DNA from: a virus
Lineage: Duplodnaviria; Heunggongvirae; Uroviricota; Caudoviricetes
IMG/VR virus record: IMGVR_UViG_3300044712_000123
Length of the DNA stretch: 64,000 bases
Reading direction: 5' to 3' (one strand)
A model generated the notes under the pieces. That model was not told the origin of the DNA. It searched no databases and was given only the letters and a program-made list of their open reading frames with translations. How positions within the stretch are numbered: the first letter of the stretch is position 1; each line of letters opens with the position of its first letter. This document shows, piece by piece, positions 23,901 to 58,151 of this stretch. A program made the position numbers and the translations under genes.

Positions 23901-26900
23901 TGAGAAGATTTTTTGTACAGTATTCTCTACTACAAGTTCAGTAGAAACAACGTTGTATCCAACGTGTGCATATTTAGTAGCAGCCCAGTCAGTACCTGGA
24001 CGTGTCGCAACCGTCATAGTCAATGTATCTGAAACAACACCCGGCACCATTTCTTCTGGACCATAACCTGCAGTAAATGCATCACCTTGAACGTTATACA
24101 CTGTTGGTTCTGTCACGAACAATGTAGATATAGTCCATGTAGATAGATCAGGGCTAGATAACGTGATATTATTTTCACCTACGACCACGAACTCACCTAG
24201 GTCTGCGTTGTATGTGATTGAATTCAAGTTCTCAGTAGTACCACTAGTATAAGTAGTCCAAACATCACCGTTGACTGATGATTGTATAGTTCCGTTGTCA
24301 CCAACAACAACGAATTTGCCTTGGGCATAAATTACATCGTTTAAGTTAGGATTGCCAGTCCCAGCAGCACTTATATTATTCCAGTTGCTTCCGTTTACAC
24401 TCACAAATCGTACAGAGTTATCACCGACGATAATAATCTTGTCAGTGTTACTAGTAACTGCATTTAGTGCATATGAAGTTAGTACATCAAACTGAGGAAC
24501 CCAATTTAAACCGTCTGTGCTAGTGACAATCAAGTTAGTATCAATTGTATTTGATCCTACTACTCGTTGTCCTGCGCCCACTGCAACAAAGCCGTTGTAA
24601 TTTGGAATTGAAACAGAAGTTACTCCATTCAATACTTGAGGCAGATTGCCGTATGCAATACTCAAATCGTATACTTCAGGCCAGAAGAAGAAGTCTGTAC
24701 TTGCGACAATATTTTGTCCAACCGCAACAGCAACCCCATTATAGTATGCTACACTGTTTAATGAAACTGCATCCGTTTTCAAAGCAGAAAGATCGAATCC
24801 AATATCATCAAACGGGATTGCATCATATGGAGTATATTCGGCACCAGAACTTATCCAAACCCAACTAGCGCCGTCTTCACTTAGTAGCAACGGTGTAGAT
24901 GCGTTTGTAGTTGTCATTATATATTTGGTATCATCACCGATACCAACAGTAATAATATCAGTAGGGTTGATAGGTTGATTAGCTATTCTATCAATATTCC
25001 ATAGAGTTGCCGAAGCACTTAATAATACTGCTGAATATGTTGGTGCATTGGCAGCAGCAACATATGTTGTGCCGTCCCAAATTACTGATTTGATATCAAC
25101 TTCTGCTGGATAGAAAGGTTGATCTTGTAAAATAGTATCGATCGGGAACTGTGCATCCGGAGCAAACGCATTACCTAAATAAGTACTGTTTGGATAAGTG
25201 ATTCCTTCAACTAATTGTGTCAAGTCTAAACCAGGCATGTTGATCGTAGGTTGATAGTAACCTACGATTCTATCCAATGCGTTTAATTTGCTACTGCCAC
25301 TATCTAACAGTTCCCATTTACCAAAAATAAAGTCAGTGTCGTTGTTGCTAATCAAGCATTGATATACTCGATTATTGTACTTGACTACACTTCTGTTGAA
25401 GTAGAACGGTTCTGGTAAGAATGCATAATCACCTTGTTTAGCAACAGTACAAGTAACATCATTTGCAGTAATGTTAATCGCAGAACCAGTAGGAGAAGTT
25501 GCAACTTGAATAGTTGCTTCTGGAGACACCGTAGTAGTAATGCCAACAATATAGTAAGTCTGACCAAGAGTCAGTCCGCCGGCAACTGTACCAGTGAATA
25601 CGATTGGATCGTATAACGCAAAGCCTGTGCTATCTGCAATAGTCAATGTATCTGTAGTCAAGTTACTATCAGTAACTAATGTTGAAGTAACGCCTGTATA
25701 TGTCTGGGCTAATGTGATTCCTGAAACAGGTATCGTTAACAAGTTATTTTCATAAACTTCAACTTGGTTGTTAGAAATAACCTTGAGATAGTACTGATTC
25801 ACTGGGCCTGCTGGAGTACCAGCACGAATAACGTTAGTGATTACTCCATTACTATCAATAGAGTTGACAGTCATAGTTAAATCGTTAACTCCAGTAACAC
25901 CACCTAAATACTCACCCAAGATAACAATTGTATTATCGACTGCGTATCCTGAACCACCGTCAACAATGATTACAGAGTAACCACCAATCATGTAACTAAC
26001 ATCGAATACTGTAGTTGTATCTGTAGGGGTTTGTGTCATTGTCACTGGACCCAACTCATAAGATACTGAAACGTCTGCACCACTTGGTGTAGCAGAAACA
26101 GTAATGTACGGTGAACCTTCAGCAATCATACTACCTGATGTTGTAGTAACAGTTACAGGAGTTAGACTAGATGGGGTGTACGCAACTGTGAATTGCGTAG
26201 AACTATTAATAGAGTGTACATAATACTCGTTGTCTAATTCCAAAGTACCTAACGAGATACCAGAAAATACGATTGGCATGCCAACGTATATTCCACTAGT
26301 ATCTGCGCATACTAAATAATTTCCAACACTAGTAGTTCCTGTAATCTCAAGTTGAATACCAGGAACAGATTCAGTAGAACTAATAACACGTCCGGTATAT
26401 TCAGTTACATAATATGTTGTAGCTGCACTCAAACCACCAATAGCAGTATCAAACACTACCGGCATATTTAAATAGAAACCAGAAGTACCGCCGCTTTCAC
26501 TATCTATAGCAATTACATTTGTTGTTGCATCAATAGTGCGTGTTAGATAGTTACCACTAGTACCAGTAACTCCAACATACTCGCCGGATGTACCGTAGAA
26601 TGTCATTTGTTGACCATTGACTTGTCCAGGTGATACTGGTAAACTGACGTTCAATGTCATCTCACCTGTAGCAGTTGTCAAGTTAACAGTGTCTCGTTGA
26701 CTTGTTGCTAACATTTCATTTGAAGAAGCAAAAGTACAAGTACCTGGATTAAAAACACCACCGTTTAGATATGCTGATATCTTGATTGTGTTACCAGACA
26801 AGATGCTTTGAACATAATATCTAGTTCCGGCAACAATGTTGGTAGAACCGGTTGCAGGATTAATATTACTAAAAATCACAGGATCGTTTACTGCCAATGA

Positions 26901-29900
26901 TACAGTTGTATTGCAAGTAACAATACCAGAACTATCAGTTTCGCTCACTGTAAACTTAGTTGGTTGTTCAATCTTGGATATAGTGAAGTTTTGTAAATCA
27001 ATTACGGATGTTACATAGTAATGCTCATTCTCGACAATTCCACCAAAGACATTGCCTGTAAAATACACAGACAAGCCTGTATAGAATCCACGAGTACCAC
27101 CTGTACCACTAGTGTTTAACGGAATAGTTACCGCATTATTTCCTTGGGTTGTTGCGGTTGCCGTAGTAATTCCTGGGTAATCAATTGTCACTACAGCAAC
27201 GTTATTCAACTCACCGGTGTAGCAAATTAATCCAGCGGCACCGATAGTCGATGTTGTTAGTGTTTGAACTGCTCCAGGAACACCATTTGAAATGGTAGCT
27301 GAGACCGTAAATGAAGTCTTGCTATTAACTGTCTTAACGTAGTAAGTTTGACCGCCAACTAGGCCGCCGCTTACTGCCCCAATGAACTTTACCGGCATAC
27401 CAACATAGAAACCTAATGTAGTGTCTAGTAGATTAATATCTGCAACTGACAATGACTGCCAGTTAGTAGGATATACTTTAATTTCATTAGTACCAGTCAC
27501 GTTAGTATTAATAACTGAACGTTCTTGAGAAGACCAAGATAAAGTTTCGCTATTGCTGATATTTTGAATTTCGAATACTGCTCCCATTGCACTTGCTAAG
27601 ATATTGTCAACCGGAGGAGCTGAACTTTCTAACGATATGCTTGAGCTAGAAATTCGACTGCTATTATCATAGTTACCTGCGTAGAAAGAGCTATAGTACT
27701 CACCGCTTAGCCAATCACTAACCTGACTTTGGTAGCTAGTTCTATCAAATTTCATTTTGATTTGATTTTCTCTGATAGGTGCTGCGCTTGAGATGCATGA
27801 CGCAAACGCACCTAAGTTCAACGTTTGGTTTGCACCTGTTCCTGTTGTGAACAGTGTAATTCTTTGGCGATCCAACAGAGCGTTTGCGTAATTAGAATAC
27901 AATGCGATAATAACAGCAGGGTTAGTTTCAAGGACATTAATATAGTATCGTTGTCCGTTTTCCAATCCACCTACTGCAGTGGTATCTGCACCAACCGCGT
28001 ATGTTACTAAATCACCAGTCTGTAGCGTAGGAGCAAACAATTCAATTGTATTTGATGTTGTGCTTACTTTACTGCTATCGAATGTAACCGTAGTAGCTGG
28101 ATCAATAATAATCTTTGGTAATACTGCATATCCTTGACCAGGATCCTCTACTGTAACACTCAACACACTGTCTAAATTCATTACAGCCTTAAGCACAGCA
28201 GGGCGAGTTGGTTCAGGGTAAATTGAAGTATCAATATAAGCAGTAACCTTAGGAGGTTCTGTGTATGCTCGGCCACCGTTTAGCAATAACACTGCAGGTA
28301 GATTGATGGTAATTTCTTCTCCAGGAAGATGTTGTACAATAGCTGTACCGTTAAGACCACGAGTTAATCCACTAAGAACGTTTAACGATCTATCAACATT
28401 AGCATAGCCAATTTGTTCTTCACCGATTGTAATTATGCCGTTAATAGGGAAACCATATGCGTTGTCTACTGCCATTGCAGTTGAGTTCAACGCTACATAT
28501 GATGCTAAAGTTGTTATGCTATAGTTATCAACACCAGTGATACTGACACCATAGTTTTGATACCATTGATTGTACTCGCTTGTCTGCCAGATTGGATCTG
28601 ACGGCAAGTATTGATTATCTGCGCTAGGGTTTGTATACACTAACTCAGGTGTGATGAATTTTTCATAAGTAGAGTTGTACTTTGCAGGCAAGTCAAAATC
28701 AGTAATGTCACCCTCATATACATCGGTTCCGGTGTATTTGTACAAGAACTCTTTAATAACCACATGATATGGCTTGACTTCGTTTAAATAACCTGACAAG
28801 AAATCTTGATTGTCTGATTGGAATACTTCGATTGGTTTTAACTCACGAATAGTGTGGGCAACATCAACGAATGATGTCTTGTTCAACCAAGGTAGATAGT
28901 TCTGTGATTCAATAGTTTCTGACTGAATGTATTCAAACAATAGAATCAACGCTTTATTTCTAAACAAGTCTAAGTTGTTAGGTAATTCTTCGTTGATTGC
29001 TCTAACGATATAACGAGTTTCTTCACTTGGGTAAGTGTCGTATGGGGTGGTATCGAAGAAATTATCGCCGAAACCAAAACGTGCTGTTTGATAATCCCAC
29101 AATGAACTCTTAAACTGAATAGTACCATTAGTTAAACCAATTCTATTCCATTCACCTGTTGACAACAAGATATAAGTCTCTGCGAAGCCATCACCGTTTG
29201 CTAAAACTGTTGCAATAGTTCCTGTAGGAACATTTAGTGCAGCTAAGTCTGCATAGATAGAAACCTGCACTGCTGACTTGGTATTGTCATTGTATCCAGG
29301 CGCCCACCAGTTAACTACATCCCAATATGCGTTTACATCAAAGAACGGTAGAGGTGAACCTAACCAATTTGGGTTGTTAACTGTAGATGGATTAATTTCA
29401 CCTACCTTGTAAACAAAGGTTGAATTGTATGACTCAATGAATGGATATTGAAGAATAACTTCATTTGCATATTGCAAATAGTTTTTCAACGCAGTTAAAC
29501 GATTCACGAAGAAGCTCTGTCGTGGTCTTGTCAACACTCCATACTGTACTGGTTTAGGTAAGTATGGATCAGGAATAACTGAGCCTGCAATGTTTGTGCC
29601 AGATAAACTATCTAGTAACTTGGCGTACAATGATTCAGGCTCAGTGTTTGCTGAGTTTGAAGCAGGCAAGCCTGGCAAGAAATCATCTGCATAATTTGCA
29701 CGAATCAAACTGTACAAACTATGAGGTACATCTTGTGAAGATCCGTTACCATATCCAATGTGAAGAACAGTGTCAGTGTAATTGACATATTCACCTGAAT
29801 TGTACAATCCAAAAACGTTTGGTAGTAATGGAGCAAAATAACTAATACCAGATGAGATCGGATTAGAAATATACTGTTCGATGATACTATCCGCTAAAGT

Positions 29901-32900
29901 TTTTCCTGTCTTAGTGAAGATAATGTTAGTATTACGTACCCAGAAGAAGTACACCGGAGACAAGCCACCAGTTGAGTTAGTTATATATTCAGTTGTGTAT
30001 GAAGTAATGTCATATGGAGTTCCTGGACCTTGGTATGCTGATGGAACTACATTACTACTAATCCAACTGTAAACTGCTACGTCACTACCAGGGAACAATG
30101 TACCCCAGTACTTACTGTTATAGACTACATCATTTTGATGGTAGTTAATGAAACGTGATCTGCTAGTATCAAACCATATTTCACCAACTTTTTCTGCTCC
30201 CCAGATAGAATCTGATGGTAGAGTTCCTGTAGTATTATATGATGCAGGATCAATGTTAGAGACAACATCAATGTTTTCTCTGACGACACCTAGCAACTTA
30301 CCCTGTAGAGGGTCCATGTAGTCTAGATTAACTAGTGTTGAATTAGTTGATGCACTGTACAACTGTACGTTTTGAATTTTAGACGTATCAACTACTGCCG
30401 ATGAGCTTCGATACACTGACCAATCCTGTACGCCAGATGGATTTGAGTAAAATATTACTTGTCCTTTAGTAGTACCAGAAACAAAGTTAGGAGTACCAAT
30501 CATTACGAATGAGTTGTTGAAGTCGATGGCGTGCCCGTACATTGGTTGAGCACCGTTAACATCAGTGTTAGCATTTGTACTCTGTGCATAAACAAACTTA
30601 CCTGGGTTTAGTAAACTCTCATTGTAGTTGGCTAGGTAATCAAACATGTAGACTGCACCAACGTTTGCAATAGTATCAACCCATTGGGTTGCATTGTTGT
30701 CAAATACAGTATCATTGTCAGATTCATCATCCGAGAAATCAAACGTAGTACCAGAATAGCGTGTTCCGCTAGGAGCTGAAGCAACGAAAGATTCAGATTC
30801 GTTGAAACGAACGTTGTATCCAAATTGAGTTGCACCGTCTGCATGTGGGCATTCTACTGTCTGTGTCAATGTTAGGATGTTGATTCCCAATTCTGCTGGG
30901 GTAGCAGAATCTAAAACAGTGATACTTAGTTTGTCATTTGGTGTAGCTAAGTTAATGTCGATTAGTTGAATAATCAACTTACCTGCAATGGCTGCTGCTT
31001 GTACGTTTGTGATACGTGCTGAATTGATTGCAGCAGCCGCAACACTTGCATTCCCTGTAGGAATACTAACAGCGTATCCGTTTAATAGAATCGTGCGAGT
31101 AGTAGTTACGTTACAGTCAGAAGTACCAATAATTACACCGTACTTGTTACCGCCATTTGTAAATCGATATACGGCACCTTCATGGTTGCTGCTAGATAAT
31201 TCAAACGGCGCGCCAATAATGACTTCACTTGTGTATGTAGTAGAATCCATGCTCGTACCAAACTGCACACCGATTCTAGGGGCTGATGGTGAAGTCAACA
31301 CTTGTGACTTAACAAAGTTGTTACCACTAACGTTAATAATGTCACCTGCGTTTAATCCAGAATAAACAGTTAAAGTACTACCAATCGCTGCATAAGCAGA
31401 ATCATCTAGCAATGTGCCATTGACGCTAACATATAGTGGACTTGTCTGTGCATTTACAGTCATTGTACCTGAGCTATTTGTTAGGTTTAAAGTTGATCCA
31501 TTGCGTGTCAATGACAACGTAATAGTTGAACCAACAACAGTCTTGACATAATATACTCTGTTTAATGATACGCCACCAAATACTGTACCAGTGAAAGTAA
31601 TTGCAGTTCCGTTGGCGCCGCCAACTAAATTAGTAACATTATTCAATGTTATTGCATTACTTGTAATGCTTGATGCAGTCTTAGATGCAGTGTTCGATGG
31701 CGTCCATGACAACCCAAATGATTGCGGTGTGTAGATTTGACTAGTATATTGTGCTTCAAAGTTTTGCACTGTTCTTTCGAACATATATGCATAACCCCAG
31801 TTAGAGATAGTGCTATAATCTTGTTGTGGTGCGCCAACAACTACAGTATCACCGAAGTAATCTGTAGTAATAGATGCACCGAAGTTGTCACCCGAAGTTA
31901 AGCCAGATACAGTGAGGCTAGTTGAAAGCTCATATAAACCTGTAATAGATGACTTGCGGTATACATAAACTTTATTCAAATCAGCCGCAGATATATACAA
32001 CCAATTCTTGTCACCGGAAATAGATAAGGCAGTTCCCCATTTAGTAGAACTATCTTCTGCTGGTATTTCTTGAATTAGATTCAATCTGTCAACTAAAGTA
32101 GTTTGCTCTAGTTCGTAAACATACACCTTAGGTGTTCCGCTTGTTGGTTCACTAATAATGAATGAATTATCGCTATATGCGATAGTTGTACCGAACGAAG
32201 CACCTTTAGTTAGGGTTTGATACAACTCATATTCTTTCATCAATGGATTATATGAATAGCGATATACTGCACCTGCCCCGGCATCACCGATTAATCCACC
32301 AACTTTATTAGTGTATGCAACTGAACTACCAAATGAAACTGAACCATCTTTAGTAGTATTGTAATCGAAACCGTAATTTAAACTCTTGCGATAAACAGCC
32401 CATGAACCATCGTTGTTGGTATCGACCCAGACTTTGTTCTTAATGAATTCGCTGTCTAACAGTGGTAAGGTGCTGATATCCGAAGGAGTATTGACACGTT
32501 GAGATTGGAATTTAAATCCAACACCATAGCCGGTTATTGTTGAAACTTGAGGGTTCAAGTTCAATGTGATAATCACTTTATATGGATCTACTACACTTGA
32601 TACAATATAGTAATTGTCAACACGTGCATCAAAATTCACAATAGCGAATGCTTGATATTGAGATAGATTGTGAGCAGAAGCAAAAGTTACTGTTACTGTG
32701 CCGTTTAGATTATTTTTTGCATATACAACTTGTCCCAATGATGTTGGAGTGAATGTTTGCCATGTGCCTAAATAATCAGCTAGCCATACGTAATCTCTCA
32801 CATATAACTCTGATAGTGGTACAACGTTGTTGCTGTTGTCTTTAGCTGTAGGTAAGTTTGCATAATAATATGCAGACATCTTTACGTCATTTAGATTGAC

Positions 32901-35900
32901 ATAGCCTGCATCTGGAAACAATACGTTAGGTGTTGCAGGTGGAAGAGTGGCCAGCACCTCAGGGTTCTTGATCTGTCTACCATAATTGTAAACTGAGTAC
33001 AAAGGAACTTCTTGCTGAACTCCGGGGATATCATAGTTACCATTGGTCAACCCAACAGTCGAAGGATTACCTGTCAACTGTGTCTCGTTCAATTTGATAT
33101 CAACAAAATTGTTATTTAGGATGCCACCAAACTCACCTGACAAGATAGCCCAATTTTCATAGATATCATAGTCGATACCACCTTGAACCAAGTTTGCTCC
33201 CTTGAACGCCTTAGCAGCAGTCAAAGTTCCTTTTTCTCTAATCATGTTCTTATAGACGTTGACCTGTGTAATGTCTGTCAGGTCTGCAAGAGCCATGTAA
33301 TCACGAGGTCGATATCCAATTAAACTAAAACTCAATTGGTCAGCATCGTTCTCTAGGTTTGCTTTGTTTACATCATAGTATATGGTAGATTCATAAGAAC
33401 GTGTTGAGCTATTAGGCAACAATCCTTTTTGAATTTCATTGTAATTAGTTTCTTTCCACTCACGCTCATCAAACAATTGTTTTGCTTGGATAATCGTAGT
33501 AGCAGTCCAATATTTGTTTTTATATTTGACAATCGCACCTTGAGTGTATTTTGTTTCAGTAGACCACTCAACAATGTTATCTTGGTTCAAGATGAAGCCT
33601 TGAGCATCAACTGTACCGTTCCACTCAGCCGATTTGGCACCTCTTACTGTAATACGAATCTGGCGAAGACCAGTGACTAGATTATAGATAGTGTCGTTGA
33701 ATAATGTTACGTTATCAAAAACAATACCATGTTCAAAATTACTGACGTTGAATTGTCCGTAAGCAACAGTATCACCTTCACTTAATGGAACAACAGTGAA
33801 TGCAGTGCCTTCACGAACGACTGAAAGATTCTCTGATGGAATAGGATACAAGTTTTGATTCAAGACAAAATTTTGCTGTCTCATTGTCAATGGTTGCACA
33901 ATGTAGCTGTCTTTGTTGATTGACAACTCGGTCGCTGCAGGGTTGATGTTCGCAATCGATCCAACTTCCCATCCAATCTGAACCCAGTATAGAAATTCAG
34001 CGATCATTTGACTCCATGTTACTGGAATACCATTTTCTACCTGTGCAAAAACACAACCTTGTTGTTCTAGATATTTACCGTACCCATCTAAGAATTGCGA
34101 CACATCAGTGATAGAGAAAAACTCTGTTCCATATGGAACTAACGCAATTTTATCAGTGTAGTCTTTTGGAATACTAACTGTTTCTTTGTCAATCGTAATA
34201 ACATCAGTATTACCATTTACTTTTGGAATCAATGTTTTGAAATATGCTTCAGTTTGACTGTTTCCATATACAGCATAACCATTCTTAGTGACCTGAATAA
34301 TTACTCCGCTGTAAATGATTCTGTCGAACGGTTGGTTGTCATATAACAAAACACCGTAGCTTTCATCAGGAATCAACAAAGAGCTATTGTTACTGTTTGC
34401 TGATGATTTTTCAACATAGAACTTTAGAAGGTTCTTATCACTGAAGCCAGCGACACGGTAGACCAAACGAACATCAATGTTTGTTAGCAAATCTGCGATA
34501 TTAGTTGTTGCGTCAACGCCAACTTGTTTTTCATAATCAACAATCCAGTTGATATAGCTGGTCTTTGCAGTACCACTACCGTATATTTGAACATCACTTA
34601 AAACTAAGTGGCTACGATTGTTAACCAAGTATTGGTTAAATTCAGTATTATACTTGTAGTTGTCAACGTCAATTGCCAAGTTGAAAAACTCAGCTGGCTT
34701 AGTCAAAGCAAGTATACGCATCAAGTCGAACGGATATGAACTGCTTCTACGATATGAGAATTCAGTTGGACCAACATCTCCCACTTTCCAGTCAGACTGG
34801 AACAAGTAGTCGTTGTAATTACCAACAATTGATGATAGAGGAGGTACTAAGTTACCTTCAGTGTCAACTGGAAGAATGTCTAACAGTTGAGGACGGATTG
34901 CTTGTTCGATTACAATTGGATCACCGTTGTTCCAATTGATACCTTGCGCCAAATCTTCCCATAGAACCAAGTTATCACTTGTGTATGGTGCTGCACCGTA
35001 ACGGGCAGTCCACCAAGACGGTTGATTTTTGAAGCCTAACATTTCCCATGGTGATGTGTTGGGAGTACTTGTATCATAGAAATACAAGTACATTCCTCTC
35101 CAGTAACCTTGGTCTATAGGTGCCTTGTCAATTTTATTTCCACTATTTCGATAGTTGAATGTGTACTCGTTAGTTCTTTGGTAGTACTGTGTTTTGTAGT
35201 CAACACGATTTTGACCTACCCAATTCAAGAATGAACTAGAATAAATTTCTAATATTTCATTGTAGGTATAATCAGTATCACGGAAGAAGCCTGGTAGAAC
35301 CTCATACTCTTGTACGGGAATTACGTTGCTTAACTTCAAGTTGTTGTATACACGTGTTTCGTACTCCAACAAGACCTGATCTCTAAAATCAACCAATGAA
35401 TTAGTTGTAGTATTGTACTGTCCAAACAACTTATTATATGATCCATCGTGTCCTACTATAAAATATGTAGGTTGTTGATAGTTGATATCTTGAATAACCT
35501 GTGGGATAGATGCAGGATACAATCCTAACTTAGTCGGTGTGTTAGGTACATACGAACCGTATGTTTGATTATATTCTTTAATCGTAATCAAGTCGCCGGG
35601 TAACAAGTCAGTAGAGACTGTCAATGAAGGACTGTCAGTACTAACTACATAATCAGTATTTCTGATTAACTGAGTAACTTTGTTGTTGCGTGTAAGATAA
35701 ACTAGCACACCGTAATAATTAGCGGTAGTATAGTCATAAATTCTACTCAACGGATAGATAGATACATCCAATGAGTTGGCAAAACTATATGAATTTGAAA
35801 TGTATGCAGATTTAGATGGCAACATATCAGACCAGAAGAATGGCTGGTCATCTGAATGTGCTGCTGTGATTTGATCCATAGCATCATCTAGCATCTCTGC

Positions 35901-38900
35901 AGGAGACATATACACTGAGTAGTCGGTACTGTTTACTGTATCTACTAACAATGTTTTGAAATTGATGTATTGTTTACTGTTATACATCAAAGAGTTGAAC
36001 AGATTGTGATCCTGCTTGCGCAAGAATGCACCTGGTGCAACTAAAGAAGCACTGTTTTGAATAATTCTATTTCCGTAAGGAACTAAATTACCTAAATCTC
36101 TGAAGTTGTTTGATCCAAACACTGTTCCTACAGTGTCTGGGTTATTAAAGAACATGCTTTGATATTGTCCACGAATATCACCTACGTTAACTGTAGTTAC
36201 TTCCTGATTCAATGGGTTATTGTTCAAGTTGATAGGAATCTGGTAGTATGCATTTGAACTAGTTTGATCGCTCAACAATAGAATTTGAATAACAGTATCA
36301 ACTGCTGGTGCGGTATTCAAAGTAACAGTAGTCGAAGTACTTTCAGCAACATATGTAAACTCAGAAGATGTTTGATAATCATTATTGACAAAAACTTGAA
36401 TTCTTGGCCACTTAGTATACTCAGCAGAGACTAAAGGAATATCACAAGTAAACGTAGCGTCGGTGGTCCCAACGTTGTAATTGAATTCAAAAATTTGATA
36501 TTGTACACTAGGTGATACTGCTGTTTGCCAACCTAGTTGACGAACAAAACTGTCTCGTGCAGTATAGTTATAAACATAACCAATGTTAACATTCTCTGTT
36601 ATTGGAGTTGTTCCTGATACGTAGTTGAAAAGGTCTGAGTTTAAGGTGACATCGAAGCTAATGTCTCCTACGTTGTCAACGCTTGAATATCTGATGGGGA
36701 ATCCTAAAATTGGATCGTCAATTCCTGTTCCAATACCATATCCAAACAATGTTGAGCCTACAAAAGAAGTACCAACATAATAGGCCTTGTCACCTAAACT
36801 AATACCATTAGAATCAAAGATATCAAACAAAGGTGGCTGATTGACTGTAGTTTTTTGTTGAGTCAATTGCCAATTTGTATCATTGAATCGGAAGTCTTTA
36901 CCTTGATTGTTGTATCCTCTAAAGGCAACTGTTTGGTCGTCATTTAAGATAAAACCATCTGCGGCTTCAGTCAATGTTATGATAGGAGTTCCGCCGTCGA
37001 TTGATGAGAAACCACTTACATAAATTTTGTTTCTAACGTTAGCGTCTTGGTCGGCAGCAAAGATGATTCTAGCACCATTAAACAGCGCATAGTTATCAGT
37101 AGTTGTATCAGTTGTGATAATAGATGAGGTTGTTGTGCCTGAAACATTTTTTGTGCCACTCCAAGATACAGTGATAGTTAATACATCAGTTCCAGTGATA
37201 GAAGTGATTGTAGTATTGGTTGGTAACACATTTGTAGAGTCAGCTACATATTGTCCTACTGCAATAGGTCCGATAACATCACTTGCATTGACAGTAATTG
37301 TAGTACTGGTAGCTCCGGTAACGGCTGCAATGATACTGTTATAGCCTGTGTACGATGTAACATCGGGATAATAGTTTTCTTGGCCAGCAACTTGAGTGAA
37401 GGCGTCCGTAGTTCTAAAATCAACAAAGTCTACTGGAGCTTTGCCGATAACACCCGAATCGAATAATCGTAGGTTAGGATAGAACTCAATAATTGGACGC
37501 TTAGCCTTATTCTCAGCAGTGGCATACTTAGTTACTATTGAAGGGTTTCCGTTGTACTGGGCAGTTGCATTAATAACATCAATGTGGAACCAACGGTTAC
37601 TACGTGACCATGCATTCATGTCCATTGAATTTCTTGCAATGGTGATATAGTCCGGAGTTACTGGAACATACAAGGTGCTATCATAATTTTCAACGTCATA
37701 AGGGGTAGTATCATATGGGATATATGATCCAAACGTGAATGGTTCTGGTGCGATCAAATCAGACTCACGAACCAATTGGATAGCTGTACCTACTCCCTCA
37801 ACATAGAAAGGAACGTTTTTGAAACTATCTGGGTAAATTGCCCCTGAGAATACAACCTTAAGACCGTTTGTGAAGACCACGCCAGTTGAAGAGGTATATT
37901 GTTTTCTACCTAAAATTTCAGTTTCAATATTAAGTGTGTTAGTAGTGTTACTATCAACAATCTTAATGACACCTACTTTGTTTGCAGTGGTACCGTCTTG
38001 GTAATATAGCGTGTCTAAAGCTGCACTCAAGAAAGGAATGATGCTTACTGTTCCGGTAACGTTTCTATAAAAGTTGCGACTAATCCATTCAGTACCGTAA
38101 CGAGCAGTAATTTTTTCACTAGTAGGAATTCCTCCACTAGGAACTAATGTTAGTGTAGGATCGATTGAACTTCCGGTATATGTTATTACATAGAAGTTCG
38201 AAGTCTCTAACGGGTCAACTGCACCTGTATTATAAAACATGACAGTCAATCCCTCTAAAGAAGTGATACCGTCAATGTTGCCCACCTGACTCAACAGTTG
38301 ACCGTTAATTTGACTATATGGTGTAGTAGAAACTACGTCAACTTCGTTATTGCCGGGAAAATTGTATTCATCTTGTGCGTTCTTATTAGGAACAGTAAAT
38401 GTAACTACTCCACTTGAAGCACCGTTGTTGATTACACCTAATACATCACGTGTTTGTAAGTTAGGTTGTGTTGGGCTATATCCAGTAACACCCGGTGCAC
38501 CTTGAATCCAAAACTGACTTATTTGATTGACTGTAAATGTGTAAGTACCACCACGCAATAGAGTCAACGTAGGGTTAGTGCTACCTGCTTGGCCATCCAC
38601 AGCAATATTGTATCCGTTAACTGCATCAGTTACTAGATAGCTCGAACCACTAAAAATAGTTTCAGTAGAAATAGTGACACGCTCTGGTCCCTGTGGCAAC
38701 CAGTAATACTGATTAAAGTTAATGATTTTATCTAAGTCAGTGAAGGAATCCCATGAATAGAACTGACTGTTGAACAGACGATTATTATCAGTAGTTAAAC
38801 CACCTTCTACCTTCAATCCGTCAATAATACCAGGGTAACTAATGAAGTCGTTTGCGGTTGTTTGATTTGCTTTGGTAAAGACGACGCCAGGATCTAATTG

Positions 38901-39107
38901 ATAATCAGTTCTTGTCTTTGTGGGTTCAGTCACATAGTAGTTCTTAGCGTTGATACCATACCCAAATTTACTTCCAACATATCCCTCAATACGTTTCGTG
39001 TTCGGTTGAGCGACCACTTGATCCAACGTAGCCTGTAAAAACTGACTGTTGGTTACTGTTTTGAAAATTTCAGGAAGAAAGTTTAGCGTTCTAATTCTTG
39101 TTGCCAT
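20934..39107 (-). CDS. Giant (6057 aa) baseplate wedge/adhesin-like virion protein
   Basis: Uninterrupted 18-kb ORF downstream of gp6; FG-GAP-like propeller repeats, Asp-box (SxDGxxW) repeats, about 13 GxPxxF..GG....YYV repeats, VKPYH wedge-like motif. Confidence 0.85.
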   Translation of the reverse strand: MATRIRTLNFLPEIFKTVTNSQFLQATLDQVVAQPNTKRIEGYVGSKFGYGINAKNYYVTEPTKTRTDYQLDPGVVFTKANQTTANDFISYPGIIDGLKVEGGLTTDNNRLFNSQFYSWDSFTDLDKIINFNQYYWLPQGPERVTISTETIFSGSSYLVTDAVNGYNIAVDGQAGSTNPTLTLLRGGTYTFTVNQISQFWIQGAPGVTGYSPTQPNLQTRDVLGVINNGASSGVVTFTVPNKNAQDEYNFPGNNEVDVVSTTPYSQINGQLLSQVGNIDGITSLEGLTVMFYNTGAVDPLETSNFYVITYTGSSIDPTLTLVPSGGIPTSEKITARYGTEWISRNFYRNVTGTVSIIPFLSAALDTLYYQDGTTANKVGVIKIVDSNTTNTLNIETEILGRKQYTSSTGVVFTNGLKVVFSGAIYPDSFKNVPFYVEGVGTAIQLVRESDLIAPEPFTFGSYIPYDTTPYDVENYDSTLYVPVTPDYITIARNSMDMNAWSRSNRWFHIDVINATAQYNGNPSIVTKYATAENKAKRPIIEFYPNLRLFDSGVIGKAPVDFVDFRTTDAFTQVAGQENYYPDVTSYTGYNSIIAAVTGATSTTITVNASDVIGPIAVGQYVADSTNVLPTNTTITSITGTDVLTITVSWSGTKNVSGTTTSSIITTDTTTDNYALFNGARIIFAADQDANVRNKIYVSGFSSIDGGTPIITLTEAADGFILNDDQTVAFRGYNNQGKDFRFNDTNWQLTQQKTTVNQPPLFDIFDSNGISLGDKAYYVGTSFVGSTLFGYGIGTGIDDPILGFPIRYSSVDNVGDISFDVTLNSDLFNYVSGTTPITENVNIGYVYNYTARDSFVRQLGWQTAVSPSVQYQIFEFNYNVGTTDATFTCDIPLVSAEYTKWPRIQVFVNNDYQTSSEFTYVAESTSTTVTLNTAPAVDTVIQILLLSDQTSSNAYYQIPINLNNNPLNQEVTTVNVGDIRGQYQSMFFNNPDTVGTVFGSNNFRDLGNLVPYGNRIIQNSASLVAPGAFLRKQDHNLFNSLMYNSKQYINFKTLLVDTVNSTDYSVYMSPAEMLDDAMDQITAAHSDDQPFFWSDMLPSKSAYISNSYSFANSLDVSIYPLSRIYDYTTANYYGVLVYLTRNNKVTQLIRNTDYVVSTDSPSLTVSTDLLPGDLITIKEYNQTYGSYVPNTPTKLGLYPASIPQVIQDINYQQPTYFIVGHDGSYNKLFGQYNTTTNSLVDFRDQVLLEYETRVYNNLKLSNVIPVQEYEVLPGFFRDTDYTYNEILEIYSSSFLNWVGQNRVDYKTQYYQRTNEYTFNYRNSGNKIDKAPIDQGYWRGMYLYFYDTSTPNTSPWEMLGFKNQPSWWTARYGAAPYTSDNLVLWEDLAQGINWNNGDPIVIEQAIRPQLLDILPVDTEGNLVPPLSSIVGNYNDYLFQSDWKVGDVGPTEFSYRRSSSYPFDLMRILALTKPAEFFNLAIDVDNYKYNTEFNQYLVNNRSHLVLSDVQIYGSGTAKTSYINWIVDYEKQVGVDATTNIADLLTNIDVRLVYRVAGFSDKNLLKFYVEKSSANSNNSSLLIPDESYGVLLYDNQPFDRIIYSGVIIQVTKNGYAVYGNSQTEAYFKTLIPKVNGNTDVITIDKETVSIPKDYTDKIALVPYGTEFFSITDVSQFLDGYGKYLEQQGCVFAQVENGIPVTWSQMIAEFLYWVQIGWEVGSIANINPAATELSINKDSYIVQPLTMRQQNFVLNQNLYPIPSENLSVVREGTAFTVVPLSEGDTVAYGQFNVSNFEHGIVFDNVTLFNDTIYNLVTGLRQIRITVRGAKSAEWNGTVDAQGFILNQDNIVEWSTETKYTQGAIVKYKNKYWTATTIIQAKQLFDEREWKETNYNEIQKGLLPNSSTRSYESTIYYDVNKANLENDADQLSFSLIGYRPRDYMALADLTDITQVNVYKNMIREKGTLTAAKAFKGANLVQGGIDYDIYENWAILSGEFGGILNNNFVDIKLNETQLTGNPSTVGLTNGNYDIPGVQQEVPLYSVYNYGRQIKNPEVLATLPPATPNVLFPDAGYVNLNDVKMSAYYYANLPTAKDNSNNVVPLSELYVRDYVWLADYLGTWQTFTPTSLGQVVYAKNNLNGTVTVTFASAHNLSQYQAFAIVNFDARVDNYYIVSSVVDPYKVIITLNLNPQVSTITGYGVGFKFQSQRVNTPSDISTLPLLDSEFIKNKVWVDTNNDGSWAVYRKSLNYGFDYNTTKDGSVSFGSSVAYTNKVGGLIGDAGAGAVYRYSYNPLMKEYELYQTLTKGASFGTTIAYSDNSFIISEPTSGTPKVYVYELEQTTLVDRLNLIQEIPAEDSSTKWGTALSISGDKNWLYISAADLNKVYVYRKSSITGLYELSTSLTVSGLTSGDNFGASITTDYFGDTVVVGAPQQDYSTISNWGYAYMFERTVQNFEAQYTSQIYTPQSFGLSWTPSNTASKTASSITSNAITLNNVTNLVGGANGTAITFTGTVFGGVSLNRVYYVKTVVGSTITLSLTRNGSTLNLTNSSGTMTVNAQTSPLYVSVNGTLLDDSAYAAIGSTLTVYSGLNAGDIINVSGNNFVKSQVLTSPSAPRIGVQFGTSMDSTTYTSEVIIGAPFELSSSNHEGAVYRFTNGGNKYGVIIGTSDCNVTTTRTILLNGYAVSIPTGNASVAAAAINSARITNVQAAAIAGKLIIQLIDINLATPNDKLSITVLDSATPAELGINILTLTQTVECPHADGATQFGYNVRFNESESFVASAPSGTRYSGTTFDFSDDESDNDTVFDNNATQWVDTIANVGAVYMFDYLANYNESLLNPGKFVYAQSTNANTDVNGAQPMYGHAIDFNNSFVMIGTPNFVSGTTKGQVIFYSNPSGVQDWSVYRSSSAVVDTSKIQNVQLYSASTNSTLVNLDYMDPLQGKLLGVVRENIDVVSNIDPASYNTTGTLPSDSIWGAEKVGEIWFDTSRSRFINYHQNDVVYNSKYWGTLFPGSDVAVYSWISSNVVPSAYQGPGTPYDITSYTTEYITNSTGGLSPVYFFWVRNTNIIFTKTGKTLADSIIEQYISNPISSGISYFAPLLPNVFGLYNSGEYVNYTDTVLHIGYGNGSSQDVPHSLYSLIRANYADDFLPGLPASNSANTEPESLYAKLLDSLSGTNIAGSVIPDPYLPKPVQYGVLTRPRQSFFVNRLTALKNYLQYANEVILQYPFIESYNSTFVYKVGEINPSTVNNPNWLGSPLPFFDVNAYWDVVNWWAPGYNDNTKSAVQVSIYADLAALNVPTGTIATVLANGDGFAETYILLSTGEWNRIGLTNGTIQFKSSLWDYQTARFGFGDNFFDTTPYDTYPSEETRYIVRAINEELPNNLDLFRNKALILLFEYIQSETIESQNYLPWLNKTSFVDVAHTIRELKPIEVFQSDNQDFLSGYLNEVKPYHVVIKEFLYKYTGTDVYEGDITDFDLPAKYNSTYEKFITPELVYTNPSADNQYLPSDPIWQTSEYNQWYQNYGVSITGVDNYSITTLASYVALNSTAMAVDNAYGFPINGIITIGEEQIGYANVDRSLNVLSGLTRGLNGTAIVQHLPGEEITINLPAVLLLNGGRAYTEPPKVTAYIDTSIYPEPTRPAVLKAVMNLDSVLSVTVEDPGQGYAVLPKIIIDPATTVTFDSSKVSTTSNTIELFAPTLQTGDLVTYAVGADTTAVGGLENGQRYYINVLETNPAVIIALYSNYANALLDRQRITLFTTGTGANQTLNLGAFASCISSAAPIRENQIKMKFDRTSYQSQVSDWLSGEYYSSFYAGNYDNSSRISSSSISLESSAPPVDNILASAMGAVFEIQNISNSETLSWSSQERSVINTNVTGTNEIKVYPTNWQSLSVADINLLDTTLGFYVGMPVKFIGAVSGGLVGGQTYYVKTVNSKTSFTVSATISNGVPGAVQTLTTSTIGAAGLICYTGELNNVAVVTIDYPGITTATATTQGNNAVTIPLNTSGTGGTRGFYTGLSVYFTGNVFGGIVENEHYYVTSVIDLQNFTISKIEQPTKFTVSETDSSGIVTCNTTVSLAVNDPVIFSNINPATGSTNIVAGTRYYVQSILSGNTIKISAYLNGGVFNPGTCTFASSNEMLATSQRDTVNLTTATGEMTLNVSLPVSPGQVNGQQMTFYGTSGEYVGVTGTSGNYLTRTIDATTNVIAIDSESGGTSGFYLNMPVVFDTAIGGLSAATTYYVTEYTGRVISSTESVPGIQLEITGTTSVGNYLVCADTSGIYVGMPIVFSGISLGTLELDNEYYVHSINSSTQFTVAYTPSSLTPVTVTTTSGSMIAEGSPYITVSATPSGADVSVSYELGPVTMTQTPTDTTTVFDVSYMIGGYSVIIVDGGSGYAVDNTIVILGEYLGGVTGVNDLTMTVNSIDSNGVITNVIRAGTPAGPVNQYYLKVISNNQVEVYENNLLTIPVSGITLAQTYTGVTSTLVTDSNLTTDTLTIADSTGFALYDPIVFTGTVAGGLTLGQTYYIVGITTTVSPEATIQVATSPTGSAINITANDVTCTVAKQGDYAFLPEPFYFNRSVVKYNNRVYQCLISNNDTDFIFGKWELLDSGSSKLNALDRIVGYYQPTINMPGLDLTQLVEGITYPNSTYLGNAFAPDAQFPIDTILQDQPFYPAEVDIKSVIWDGTTYVAAANAPTYSAVLLSASATLWNIDRIANQPINPTDIITVGIGDDTKYIMTTTNASTPLLLSEDGASWVWISSGAEYTPYDAIPFDDIGFDLSALKTDAVSLNSVAYYNGVAVAVGQNIVASTDFFFWPEVYDLSIAYGNLPQVLNGVTSVSIPNYNGFVAVGAGQRVVGSNTIDTNLIVTSTDGLNWVPQFDVLTSYALNAVTSNTDKIIIVGDNSVRFVSVNGSNWNNISAAGTGNPNLNDVIYAQGKFVVVGDNGTIQSSVNGDVWTTYTSGTTENLNSITYNADLGEFVVVGENNITLSSPDLSTWTISTLFVTEPTVYNVQGDAFTAGYGPEEMVPGVVSDTLTMTVATRPGTDWAATKYAHVGYNVVSTELVVENTVQKIFSWANTVETPSQLAVFGISATTGLSVSLYKNTDYTIDWIAQTITMNSTPYSLGYNKIRVDVYETGNGDQLVKANTSTDPIRDNSSTGFSEIYVNCDYSAPIFSGSGVVRPGSEPIEVIATRTEAGPDSITVTNIGKFILNSPIKFYGGVFGGVQEDVTYYVKTISLVTGKITISDTFNVGTGTAGPTFQLSDATGIMTVIIQVGIGQPWSTPITFYNGNQLTFGSALNITRTNSVRDTVTCNSTNGLVVGSQLVFSNTMFGNIIEPMKKYYLKSIYDGNEFTISETLGGATVQLDDATGGAMVVVNDYAFGVVEDSITAKIIFAGVNDPNNPGYVMPYNQSTDYLTYTLFGETVPEQYGYTLPEVNLFTGTGSQTVFAFTNYVGLTNRTSSIVEINGIRQTSSTYTISAGTNTITFTSAPALNAKIVVTTYNRTERQYFNTQYGLTGNIVASIVNVSNALSTPIATSTVTATDGTTEYITCGSTTGFIVGQPIEFKGTSFGSVATDGTVYFVRAIISSTQFTIQDQSGTIINLTTGSGLMVAYVGGQPAVRVTTSAANGFVTGDIVMIDGTQGSVQLNNSVYYVHKITTTQFDLYASAYNSANGATNTPITEISSYISGGYAWKWGTYILAAATATATSSVTNAITCSDATQLIHNTPVIFTKQGYSEGASLFGGLIAGTVYYVNSIVDGTNFTLSTEPDGETLALTTGSGSINVTQWEQNNVDRLWVTINGYRVPSSALRLNPDNYLSILVPISSSDEVIITSMMPSATPNEMVYQLNVSTTGNGEVYRANAENRTWLTQPLYNTQDQIHVNDAKRLVNTYEQTVAIPVGYNPATEPLIIGVPLDKNLIIQVNLFNATTGTEVPSISYRLALVDAAPVVIYTGSGQVGNNLVLTVIYGNMIYLNGEYIRFGKADLTLNVLSELQRGQLGTGEQSSIPKYAEVFGLLSSNRMTDVEYETVWNSTVYNSTLGDPLQISDTSAAIFLNGGSN

Positions 39108-55982: not shown

Positions 55983-56546
55983 ATGACAAGTCCACAGAAA
56001 GCAAAAGGCTCAGGTTTCGAGCGAGAAATCGCAAAATATCTTTCAGATAAGTACGGTGAATCATTCATTCGTGCTCCTGGATCCGGTGCTTATGTGGGTG
56101 GGAAGAATCAATCACGTACAGAATTCTTGCACGAAGGTCAAATTCGTTCTTTCAAGGGCGACATTGTACCCGGTCAAAGTTTCAGTAAAATGAACATTGA
56201 ATGCAAATTCTATGCTGACTTCCCATTTCATCTATTACTTACAGGGGACTGTAAAGTAATCGATACTTGGATCGACCAACTCATGGACGTAGCAGATCCT
56301 GGCGATATTAATCTTCTGTTTATGAAGTTTAATCGCAAGGGTCGCTATGTTTGCGTACAAAGCAAATTTACATGGTTGGCTGACAACTTTGTGTATTACA
56401 CATCAAAAAAGCACGGTGACTGGACAATCTTCGAGTTCGACAGTTTCTTTGCATCAAACACTGAATTACTTAAAACATATTCAACATCAATAGACACCAC
56501 GTCAAAACAATCATCTGATAACCCCATTTTAACAATTAACATCTAA
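55983..56546 (+). CDS. Holliday junction resolvase-like PD-(D/E)XK nuclease
   Basis: KAKGSGFEREIA, RAPGSGA, GDI, IECK; start moved to ATG 55983. Confidence 0.82.
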   Translation: MTSPQKAKGSGFEREIAKYLSDKYGESFIRAPGSGAYVGGKNQSRTEFLHEGQIRSFKGDIVPGQSFSKMNIECKFYADFPFHLLLTGDCKVIDTWIDQLMDVADPGDINLLFMKFNRKGRYVCVQSKFTWLADNFVYYTSKKHGDWTIFEFDSFFASNTELLKTYSTSIDTTSKQSSDNPILTINI

Positions 56547-56559
56547 AGTTTGAAAAATT

Positions 56560-56930
56560 CGTTGGCTCCGTTGGGAGTCCTCCTTGAGACTGTACAGATC
56601 GTGCTGTGCCGTTAGATTCTGGAGTATATATGTTAGCAATAACATAGGAATACCGAGAGGGCAATCGGCAAAGCGAACCCTCAACAAGCTCACACTTATT
56701 TCATTTTTGCGGTGTGAGATGTGCGTTGCGAAGGCGTCAATTGAAATAGCATTGATAGACCTAACTACAGCCTCATTATACTTTACAGAGCAACCGGTAG
56801 CGGATCATGTCACAAAGACGGCAATGATTCGGAGGAAAAATGACTATGGATGACGGGCATGGCAAATGTACCCTTAACCAAAGGTAGTGCTGAACAGCAC
56901 TACCATGGCTTCAAAGCGGCAATACGTATT
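56560..56930 (+). ncRNA. Putative large structured non-coding RNA (family unknown; boundaries approximate)
   Basis: Non-coding gap in a gene-dense genome with at least eight stem-loops; several need G-U pairs on the plus strand; GCAA tetraloop at 56636-56639. Confidence 0.55.
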
Positions 56931-56983
56931 CTTCTCCTTTAATAGTAAAAGAGAATAGTTAGAATAAATTAACCGTAAAAATA

Positions 56984-57025
56984 AAGAACGAACGAAGTGA
57001 GTTCTTAGATGAACGAAGTTCATCT
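56984..57025 (+). other. Two adjacent cGAAg tri-loop hairpins
   Basis: aagaac-GA-ac-GAA-gt-GA-gttctt and agatgaac-GAA-gttcatct. Confidence 0.6.
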
Positions 57026-57074
57026 TTAAAAGAGATACTAGAATAGATAACTCTAAACCTCTTATGACAAATGA

Positions 57075-57097
57075 ATAGGTACATCCAGTGTACCTAT
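57075..57097 (-). terminator. Possible terminator hairpin after the gp51-like ORF
   Basis: Perfect 9-bp stem ataggtaca/tgtacctat 5 nt past the stop; weak U-tract. Confidence 0.4.
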
Positions 57098-57102
57098 ATC
57101 CA

Positions 57103-57279
57103 TTAGAAGAATGGCAATTGAGATTTCTTAGTAATGTCTAGGTTCTCCTCAACAATACTTGCTATGGCTTCTCGCTCTTGGGGAGACATATTGAGTATGT
57201 CTTCATAGGAAGCTCCCCCTCGCATGTACCAAGAAAATTTCAGTGCGTTCTTTTTGATAGTATTGGCTTCTTCATCCAT
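57103..57279 (-). CDS. T4 gp51-like baseplate hub assembly/tail chaperone segment (58 aa from ATG; frame open back to 57339)
   Basis: Not in ORF track. MDEEANTIKKNALKFSWYMRGGASYEDILNMSPQEREAIASIVEENLDITKKSQLPFF; the SYEDILNMSPQER helix resembles gp51/tail chaperone T regions. Confidence 0.75.
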   Translation of the reverse strand: MDEEANTIKKNALKFSWYMRGGASYEDILNMSPQEREAIASIVEENLDITKKSQLPFF

Positions 57280-57326: not shown

Positions 57327-58151
57327 TTAATCGAAAAAATCTGAAACGTTCAATGCAAGTGACTGCTCATAGTCATGACTACAATTAACACACTTGATTT
57401 TCATTGGTTTGATATTTGCACCTTCACGTAGTTTAATAACTTGGTCTCGAATCGCCGAGAATGTGTTTCTATCACAACCATGTAAAAATTCCGAAATGTA
57501 CTCTTTGTTGTCTACGATTGTATTTGGTAGTTTGATACTTTCGATGGTATTAACTACAATCTCGATGTTCATCTCTGTCAACTTTTTCATTGTAGCAGCC
57601 GACTGCTTTGCTCTAGCATCATCATCTTCTATTAGCTGGATGTTATTGATTTCTCGTTTAATCTCAAATTGTGCTAGGTTACCATTGTTTACATCACGAT
57701 ATGAAAGTGGTCTGAACTTTATTTCTAAATCTCGGATTTTCATGACATTCTCGTAACCCTCTGCTTTGATATCACTCAACAGACTAACTAAGTTTACACC
57801 GTACTTACCAGATTCTTCACATTTTGGGCAGAATGAATCGATTTCTAGATCATTGCCGTTTGTAGCTGCTCTGATGGCAATTAACAACGTGTCTACGTCA
57901 ACTGACGGCAACACCCAAGGATCTTTGATTGATGGAACACAGCTTTTGATAATTTCAATTACTGCATTACCGTTAAACAACGCATCAGGGGTCTTCGCTG
58001 TAATTTCATCAATGGCCGTCATTGGGTATACTGGTAACTCACCGTTATCCGGCATTTCAAGAGTACCCTCAGGGTAATACTTGCCTTTGCTAGGAAGTGT
58101 GATATACAATGCTGGTCTACGGAAATATTGTCTTAGTGGGTTATTGCTCAT
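57327..58151 (-). CDS. Baseplate hub assembly protein, T4 gp26-like (tail assembly chaperone)
   Basis: YITLPSKGKYY, VYPMTAIDE, DVDTLLIAIRAAT, CPKC...CVNC zinc ligands, ends SDFFD. Confidence 0.82.
   Translation of the reverse strand: MSNNPLRQYFRRPALYITLPSKGKYYPEGTLEMPDNGELPVYPMTAIDEITAKTPDALFNGNAVIEIIKSCVPSIKDPWVLPSVDVDTLLIAIRAATNGNDLEIDSFCPKCEESGKYGVNLVSLLSDIKAEGYENVMKIRDLEIKFRPLSYRDVNNGNLAQFEIKREINNIQLIEDDDARAKQSAATMKKLTEMNIEIVVNTIESIKLPNTIVDNKEYISEFLHGCDRNTFSAIRDQVIKLREGANIKPMKIKCVNCSHDYEQSLALNVSDFFD

Follow-up and report, generated by a model that had tools for sequence, protein, structure and literature searches.

The gap at positions 56547-57102 of the DNA analysed here (a stretch of 64,000 nucleotides from a Caudoviricetes virus, referred to as the window) carries a conserved gene for a non-coding RNA of ~370 nt that is encoded on the plus strand and is pseudoknotted twice. 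Directly seen are the structure and the strand of the RNA, a mirrored direct repeat and a strand-specific hairpin tail and, in relatives, promoter-like sites of their own and dispersed copies. Judged by the comparison of homologous loci, the element probably serves as an origin of the ColE1 kind, at which replication is primed by RNA. A wider joint reading, for which the chances appear about even, would be that in Rak2/PBECO4-like jumbo phages, ranging from lake viruses to E. coli phages in culture, replication starts at widespread structured primer RNAs, each capturing its own template via a freely variable mirrored repeat of 7-11 nt in the manner of a programmable R-loop switch in cis, some genomes having a single origin and others 3-5 that are spaced apart.

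The window comes from a T4-like jumbo phage. Its genes for a late sigma factor, SbcD, SbcC and a RusA-like Holliday junction resolvase (PDDEXK_15; phrog_244, PF24608; 55983..56546, plus strand), the last of which is replaced by other genes in relatives, are followed by a convergent baseplate hub gene (phrog_150; 57327-58151, minus strand) and the portal gene, and a convergent small ORF without a family match (57103-57279, minus strand) borders the gap on the hub side. The original prediction rightly singled out this region as the only long non-coding stretch: apart from the 556-nt gap no other exceeds 220 nt in the whole window, and a 218-nt gap at 7116 is an artefact of a GTG start. Further features of the window are a TTTTTTC run at the hub-gene end (~57334-57340, minus strand) and a 6057-aa ORF on the minus strand (20934-39107), a further ORF block extending to the left end. 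Within the tail of the resolvase gene lies a conserved GACAC-N-A-N-GTC motif (56493..56503, plus strand), which was counted in 95 of 100 distinct loci of family A, the family of the window RNA, compared to 10 of 69 family-B viral loci and 1 of 79 genome-contig control loci. Its distance to the RNA is variable (commonly 67-92 nt before 56580), and it is repeated outside any ORF ahead of all four copies of the element in the record G011; to call it a leader or antitermination signal would be a guess. The best site found in a promoter search ahead of the window RNA matches at 9 of 12 positions, and a -10-like hexamer precedes the RNA in 66 of 100 loci, the stop codon accounting for part of this signal.

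In IMG/VR the resolvase has 235 relatives, and in all of the best 80, which were examined, the RNA element is located directly 3' of the resolvase gene. A motif scan over half of the collection yielded 119 more family-A loci, and the tool estimate for the whole family is ~250 IMG/VR stretches. The element is single-copy in five of five large related records, from which the copy number of the window was deduced. The helices were derived by mutual information from 92 distinct full-length family-A copies with a mean identity of 75%. Covariation among homologs, which the original prediction had named as a check, was counted in 46 copies picked at <90% identity out of 112: the 106 named pairs are paired in 93.5% of cases and 74 of them show double changes. 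None of 500 shuffles reaches any of these measures and slid controls are paired to 31-45%, these pairing controls being somewhat flattering because overlapping data had served to derive the structure. Folded as a single sequence, the plus strand is unremarkable (z = -1.62, 6 of 100 shuffles equally good) and the minus strand does better (z = -3.03), and therefore the case for the RNA rests on its homologs. Both pseudoknots and the long-range core helices are absent from the single-sequence fold.

The structured RNA body of family A spans 56556..56925 (all parts on the plus strand), as delimited by covariation and weakly hinted at by a contig described below. Its 5' domain (56557..56650, helices 2-6) comprises hairpin A (56564-79), a helix (56580-83/56621-24) enclosing hairpin B (56592-609), and hairpin C (56629-46), which carries a GNRA loop. 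The core domain follows (56651..56799, helices 7-14), with 98.7-100% pairing except for the variable hairpin F (56733-61; 54-87%). Its closing helix (56651-55/56795-99) encloses the hairpins D (56657-82), E (56684-722) and F, and an inner helix is formed by 56725-29/56790-94; the internal loop of hairpin D resembles a C-loop motif. In pseudoknot 1 (56701..56843, helix 11) the loop of hairpin E (56701-07) pairs with 56837-43, with 98.2% pairing and double changes in five of six counted pairs, and in pseudoknot 2 (56771..56835, helix 15) the segment 56771-74 pairs with 56832-35, with 95.3% pairing and double changes in four of four pairs. Hairpin G (56801..56831, helices 16-17) comes after the core domain, and the 3' hairpin H (56878..56908, core stem 56883-904, helix 18, 99.7% paired) is placed between the two copies of the direct repeat. 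A weak closing helix (helix 1, plus strand) would join the RNA 5' end with repeat copy 2; it is paired to 86.6%, and none of its six pairs shows double changes. Many junction residues are invariant in the RNA body. All seven stems that had been named from the window alone are present, the last of them with a corrected length of 9 bp and a 4-nt loop, and the two pseudoknots come in addition. The boundaries predicted at the outset (56547..56960) had to be redrawn: the structured RNA ends near 56925, and the conserved unit extends beyond it to 57025, the end of the hairpin tail, and includes the upstream motif at 56493-56503.

The assignment to the plus strand, likewise predicted, is borne out by an excess of G-U over A-C cells (211 vs 34) and by the GNRA loop, which caps hairpin C in 69 of the 91 copies that could be parsed. 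An overlapping frame of 89 aa is free of stops in just one of 112 copies, namely the window itself, and coding is therefore excluded. In the window no Rfam covariance model reaches its gathering cut-off, and the RNA body has no match at E values up to 10; this includes the models for RNase P, tmRNA, group I/II introns, GOLLD and ROOL. ARAGORN found neither tRNA nor tmRNA in the window, and blastn of the window RNA against cultured phages gave only three chance matches. The expectation of a structured RNA outside the known families, with no tRNA, tmRNA, RNase P or group I intron core, thus holds. What is new is a conserved RNA family without a catalogue entry, only a 5' fragment of one subfamily (B1) being present in Rfam.

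For transcription, eight sequencing runs were examined, all as unstranded contigs. The RNA library X2 (a metatranscriptome) contains a stand-alone 398-nt contig of a relative, which starts at the position of 56556 and ends 31 nt past that of 56922, at a depth of 84 compared to 2-14 for the other pieces listed; since the contigs are unstranded, it weakly hints at a transcript. High-depth pieces in X3 and X10 end at 56923-24, possibly due to assembly breaks, and X10 is probably DNA. In the RNA library X6, the contigs continue through the hairpin tail. GOLLD and ROOL are large, pseudoknotted and often phage-borne RNAs, and a free trans-acting ornate RNA of this type, serving as a scaffold or regulator, is the main rival to a primer; it is rather unlikely, the stand-alone X2 contig and the rich fold with its two pseudoknots being points in its favor.

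The element reaches well beyond family A. At distant resolvase loci the corresponding slot is often occupied by a diverged RNA, which retains the arrangement of parts and has a tail; many other distant resolvase loci have no gap there. A core pattern of a second family, B, was found in 120 viral stretches within 5 of 64 parts of the collection (~1800 stretches overall by tool estimate). Out of 102 distinct flanked stretches with this pattern, L369, L377 and L394 were dropped as non-members, and the remainder consists of subfamily B1 (59), subfamily B2 (27) and small groups. B1 RNAs begin with the Rfam motif Polynucleobacter-1 (RF01718), which forms their 5' 140-155 nt, and carry the mirrored repeats and the tail, whereas the RF01718 model leaves out core, repeats and tail. 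RF01718 matches in 3 of 20 loci and 3 of 5 genomes (gathering cut-off 37 bits), the matching ones being B1 relatives; it has no match in the window, even at E 10, and none in the records G002 and G004. B2 RNAs begin with a domain homologous to the family-A 5' domain (nhmmer E 1.6e-6), and the tails of A and B cross-match. The cultured E. coli phage PBECO4 has a gap of 836 nt in this slot, in which the family-A core words CGTTG and ACAGAGCAACC occur together with a repeat and a GNA tail. Matches to this family C were obtained in 82 phage records, with >80% of the query covered in 36; its copies have no Rfam match, and one match (E 8e-4) connects it to B2. The connection between A, B and C thus appears patchy, resting on HMM matches of 5' domain and tail, the single B2-to-C match, the gene slot and short motifs, and common descent of their cores may be called plausible. 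The family-A core model, run against 50 loci (among them B members, Phosso, PA5oct and ColE1; C copies were not part of this set), gave a single off-target match at E 8.7, family-A HMMs have no match in Phosso, PA5oct or SCTP-2, and a B RNA used as blastn query found nothing in plasmids or phages. The strict B pattern is missing from two of five large records (G007 and G008), G008 showing a diverged structured region by eye. A pattern scan of genome contigs gave 120 stretches, with four full-length HMM members and a weak fifth (L543). One bacterial contig (L628:9640-10300, G014:C8, minus strand) contains a B-type RNA that is complete, its repeats and tail being intact; it neighbors nusA, rimP, an ABC transporter and ribonucleotide reductase, and may be an island or a misassembly. 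In Phosso-like loci (L202:1986-3000, L240-L245), a non-coding stretch of ~1 kb runs divergently from the resolvase and has a similar 3' hairpin, and an RNase H-like gene follows in L202 and L240; there is no statistical link to family A.

The most peculiar feature of the element is a direct repeat around hairpin H, the two copies of which change together. In the window, copy 1 reads GC-AT-GGCAA (56857..56865, plus strand) and copy 2 GCGGCAA (56916..56922, plus strand), copy 1 carrying an insertion of 1-2 nt when compared to copy 2. At positions 56857 and 56916 the bases vary together and stay identical, with G-G in 59 and T-T in 33 of 92 family-A copies. A scripted check found the same base in 108 of 112 copies, two of the four misses being parsing errors (L021 and L024 actually have T/T). 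On the tree, each position changed 13-14 times, with a joint count of 14. None of the columns 56441-57060 is complementary to the repeat position and none comes near it in covariation (G 147 vs 60). Frequent variation in the family-A repeat is limited to this one position; the divergent members L310, L295 and L316 mirror further positions. In subfamily B, where the repeat is a 7-mer, three positions are identical in 59 of 59 B1 loci, with 10, 10 and 8 changes, all mirrored, and two positions are identical in 27 of 27 B2 loci, again with every change mirrored. Altogether the 7-mers are identical in 83 of 88 parsed B loci (of 99), compared to a permutation mean of 14 and a maximum of 28. Likewise, in family C of the cultured phages four variable positions are mirrored in 12 of 12 copies, at spacings of 50-101 nt and with one extra base in copy 1. 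As an example within a single genome, the paralog L570 of G011 has changed C to T in both repeat copies, and its three sister copies retain the C.

Since the copies stay identical and in parallel register, they do not form a normal helix with each other. The reverse complement of the repeat occurs within the locus's own RNA in just 1 of 88 cases, and no partner was found inside the RNA or in the upstream GACAC-N-A-N-GTC motif. From these comparisons, the complementary DNA strand would be the simplest partner that requires identical repeats, and we propose that the copies are mirrored because the RNA of copy 1 would hybridise to the template strand at copy 2. The bases flanking the B repeat differ in a fixed manner (CTC vs TCT), which a simple hybrid does not explain. 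If the RNA acted freely in trans, the repeats could be a like-with-like tertiary contact in parallel register or two sites for one partner. Against this stand the 18 different 7-mers that occur and are tolerated when both copies match (a census that takes the best-anchored pair per locus and is biased upward), and the different matched pairs carried by paralogs in one genome, which argue against one shared protein or target. Direct repeats flanking a hairpin also occur in template jumping, and the RNA could be read as the template of a repeat-jumping reverse transcriptase, or as a ribozyme or RNA-processing element that is RNase P-like, self-cleaving or circularising at the repeats. The many invariant junction residues would suit a ribozyme, and the core helix order may loosely resemble that of the RNase P specificity domain. 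These readings are very unlikely given that the RNA body has no Rfam match at E up to 10, tRNA and tmRNA are missing, no internal guide is complementary to the repeats, the reverse transcriptase domain RVT_1 (PF00078) is found in none of five genomes (two of them family A), which likewise speaks against a retron or DRT ncRNA, and, as a weak point, no repeat-to-repeat joint is among the joints listed for the eight contig runs.

Downstream of repeat copy 2 follows an A/T-rich linker (56923..56983, plus strand; in 112 family-A copies a median of 54 nt, range 28-88, with 49% A and 77% A+T) and then the tail of two abutting hairpins, a tandem-G.A hairpin with a GAA loop (56984-57006, plus strand) and an 8-bp hairpin with a C(GAA)G loop (57007-25, plus strand). 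Among 94 distinct family-A tails, the tandem-G.A hairpin is found on the plus strand in 87 and on the minus strand in none, and a C(GNA)G loop is closed by the longest perfect stem in 82. In 97 tails of subfamily B the tandem-GA hairpin is on the plus strand in 67 and on the minus strand in 14, and loops outside the GNRA type, for instance GATA and GTTA, are among those present. GNA loops confer stability on DNA hairpins rather than on RNA hairpins, and G-U makes up 1.1% of the pairs in the tail compared to 5.7% in the RNA body. The tail therefore appears to obey DNA rules in a strand-specific manner, and it is retained even where the RNA has diverged. The available folding models do not separate RNA from DNA for the tail (-13.0 kcal/mol as RNA vs -8.3 kcal/mol as DNA); a trans-acting RNA could use the hairpins as its 3' tail, since they fold as RNA as well, and would leave the AT-rich DNA and hairpins that accompany each copy downstream to be accounted for. 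As side observations, a conserved ATAAATGAAT motif, possibly a late-type promoter, lies 3' of the hairpin tail (window ~57046-57056), and an additional gene of ~165-200 aa is inserted between tail and small ORF in L027, L038, L073, L074, L076 and L080 (read in L027 and L074), resembling a GIY-YIG nuclease by eye in L074 without a Pfam match.

The gene upstream of the RNA is exchangeable. In the 71 B loci for which upstream sequence exists, the nearest one encodes a SegE GIY-YIG nuclease in 46 cases and a resolvase of the window family in 3, the other 22 loci having different genes there, and in PBECO4 the record annotates endonuclease VII. RNase HI or RNase H-like genes adjoin the element in several lineages, RNase HI being upstream in some; none of five family-A genomes contains RNase HI. 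This exchange, together with stand-alone copies that have promoter-like sites of their own, argues against the RNA as a dedicated partner of the resolvase. The idea of an RNA partner or guide of the upstream nuclease, one of three functions offered originally, draws on the strict adjacency in the 80 best resolvase loci; it is extremely unlikely in view of the resolvase being kept in so few of the wider loci, the many resolvase loci without an adjacent RNA, the stand-alone copies, and the lack of a variable single-stranded guide in the RNA.

G011 has four dispersed copies and G006 one relocated copy, with TTGACA-type promoter sites at each. In the G011 copies (L568-L571), several hundred bases of AT-rich short repeats replace the compact tail and two promoter-like sites lie ahead. 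Beside relocated copies, small related ORFs (65-105 aa) form tandem arrays (L572:2483-3901 and L568:163-1697). In family C, PBECO4 has four copies (at ~38, 94, 195 and 305 kb), CBB five and K64-1 three, with a promoter-like site upstream, except that the stretch of one K64-1 copy starts too late to show it, and promoter-like sites also precede the PA5oct copies. Most G011, PBECO4 and CBB copies are tens to hundreds of kb away from the hub-gene slot. The five CBB copies are all on the plus strand, as expected since 84% of CBB coding is on plus, and are evenly spaced with gaps of 52-84 kb (p 0.001-0.005). Even spacing is also indicated for PBECO4 (p 0.047) and G011 (p 0.05) with four copies each, the PBECO4 and CBB spacings not being independent, and it is not significant for K64-1 and PA5oct (p 0.13-0.68). 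Even spacing suits origins. Paralogs with promoter-like sites of their own would also fit an RNA acting in trans, as would the B-type copy beside nusA, rimP and ribonucleotide reductase in a bacterial contig. A paralog of the hub-slot region is found in PA5oct at the location of ncRNA004, which ends ~50 nt ahead of the shared tail. According to the part of the study cited here, ncRNA004 was defined by RNA-seq (246116-246734, plus strand) and accounts for 0.08/0.03/0.02% of phage reads (PMC7318152). This coincidence counts in favor of the origin reading, and the scarcity of ncRNA004 and its stop ahead of the tail speak against a trans-acting RNA, this evidence being indirect because PA5oct is without the core motif.

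The copy in the hub slot has SbcCD-like genes and, in most cases, a nuclease (PDDEXK_15, SegE GIY-YIG or annotated endonuclease VII) as neighbors, its repeats flank a hairpin and can slip, and its tail is DNA-like, all of which would fit a DNA site that transcription opens for recombination, packaging or the resolution of concatemers, with the repeats as a slipped-strand or R-loop junction for SbcCD or a junction resolvase. Such a site is distinctly unlikely, as most G011, PBECO4 and CBB copies are far from the hub slot, the nuclease is exchangeable, and the tandem-GA hairpin is unable to form on the opposite strand, so that no cruciform can arise.

For an RNA-primed origin, which is favored here, the following sequence of events is proposed. 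RNA polymerase would make the RNA, which would fold during transcription. The core, once folded, and hairpin H would keep repeat copy 1 near the polymerase while it passes copy 2. Copy 1 would then pair with the template strand of copy 2, and the transcript would remain hybridised across the AT-rich linker as an R-loop. The displaced non-template strand could fold the GNA hairpins and load a helicase or primase, and the leading strand would be primed by the RNA end, as the polymerase left it or after trimming by an RNase H from host or phage. Of the original functional suggestions, a ColE1 RNA II-like primer is thus the best supported, by comparative inference only, with an ornate trans RNA as its main rival and the nuclease partner not supported. 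Replication skew (GC, AT, keto, four-fold-site) at the element was not detected in G002 and G004, where the skews track the coding strand and turn ~5.5 kb from the element, and CBB shows no saw-tooth between copies. T4-like recombination-driven replication need not leave a skew. Four HMMs and the core covariance model gave no match in the ColE1 RNA II region, and local resemblances to RNA II seen by eye were not significant.

If the origin reading is true, the element marks replication start sites of a large phage group and provides exact candidate coordinates in cultured phages, Polynucleobacter-1 gains a function, and a structured-RNA-primer system exists outside plasmids. The mirrored repeat gives a sharp genetic prediction, i.e., single changes break function and a matched double change restores it. 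Even if the origin reading fails, a large RNA family remains (by estimate ~250 family-A stretches and ~1800 with the B core pattern). Moreover, like-with-like covariation is discarded by searches for complementary pairs and could flag other RNAs acting on their own DNA. In the literature searched, neither a prior description of the RNA, which large motif catalogues could contain unseen, nor a described replication origin for the Rak2/PBECO4-like jumbo-phage group was found.

Among known RNAs, Polynucleobacter-1 (RF01718) is the closest, as this motif is the 5' part of B1 RNAs in the same slot (Weinberg et al., 2010; PMC2864571); B1 relatives contain RF01718 and the window RNA is not RF01718. 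The table row and the supplement passages of that paper, the only one found on the motif, name no function, and other supplement text may say more. GOLLD and ROOL differ in that they give no Rfam match here and in that the phage RNA is smaller and tied to downstream DNA signals. The structured plasmid motifs ARRPOF, GEBRO and PAGEV, with average lengths of 223-349 nt, are tied to replication regions with the mechanism left open in the part of the source cited (PMC5737381); unlike these plasmid-borne motifs, to which it gives no Rfam match, the element resides in phages. The T4 R-loop origins oriF and oriG resemble the proposed mode of action, with several origins in a T4-like genome, and the AT-rich linker of the element may correspond to their unwinding element. 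As far as the cited account goes, oriF and oriG consist of a promoter, a transcript and a persistent hybrid over an unwinding element (PMC4412123); being described there by promoter and unwinding element only, they are without a conserved pseudoknotted RNA, a mirrored repeat or a hairpin tail.

The layout is that of ColE1 in compact form, i.e., a folded RNA, a mirrored repeat, an AT-rich tract and GNA hairpins on the strand that an R-loop would displace. As in ColE1 RNA II, a long folded RNA is read toward a downstream site and contains a segment identical to a downstream stretch, and in both systems a GA-NN-GNA-NN-GA hairpin motif follows downstream on the RNA-like strand. The record of ColE1 contains two G6 runs (928-933 and 1175-1180) and, on the RNA-like strand, the hairpin GA-GC-GTA-GC-GA (1332-1342); these should correspond to the published elements, the hairpin being ssiA. 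In the cited descriptions, the hybrid forms between an rG stretch of the primer RNA and a dC stretch of its template (PMC4412123), the RNA is trimmed by RNase H and then extended by Pol I, helicase loading being the task of the non-template strand (PMC5043065), and ssiA is a primosome site (PMC3167613). The phage repeat is a variable 7-11-mer with copies 48-101 nt apart, compared to two G6 runs 247 nt apart in ColE1. Furthermore, unlike ColE1, with which it has no detectable homology, the element is phage-borne and at times present in 3-5 copies. It is hence not a member of the ColE1 family and, if the inference holds, works like ColE1 RNA II or a T4 R-loop origin.
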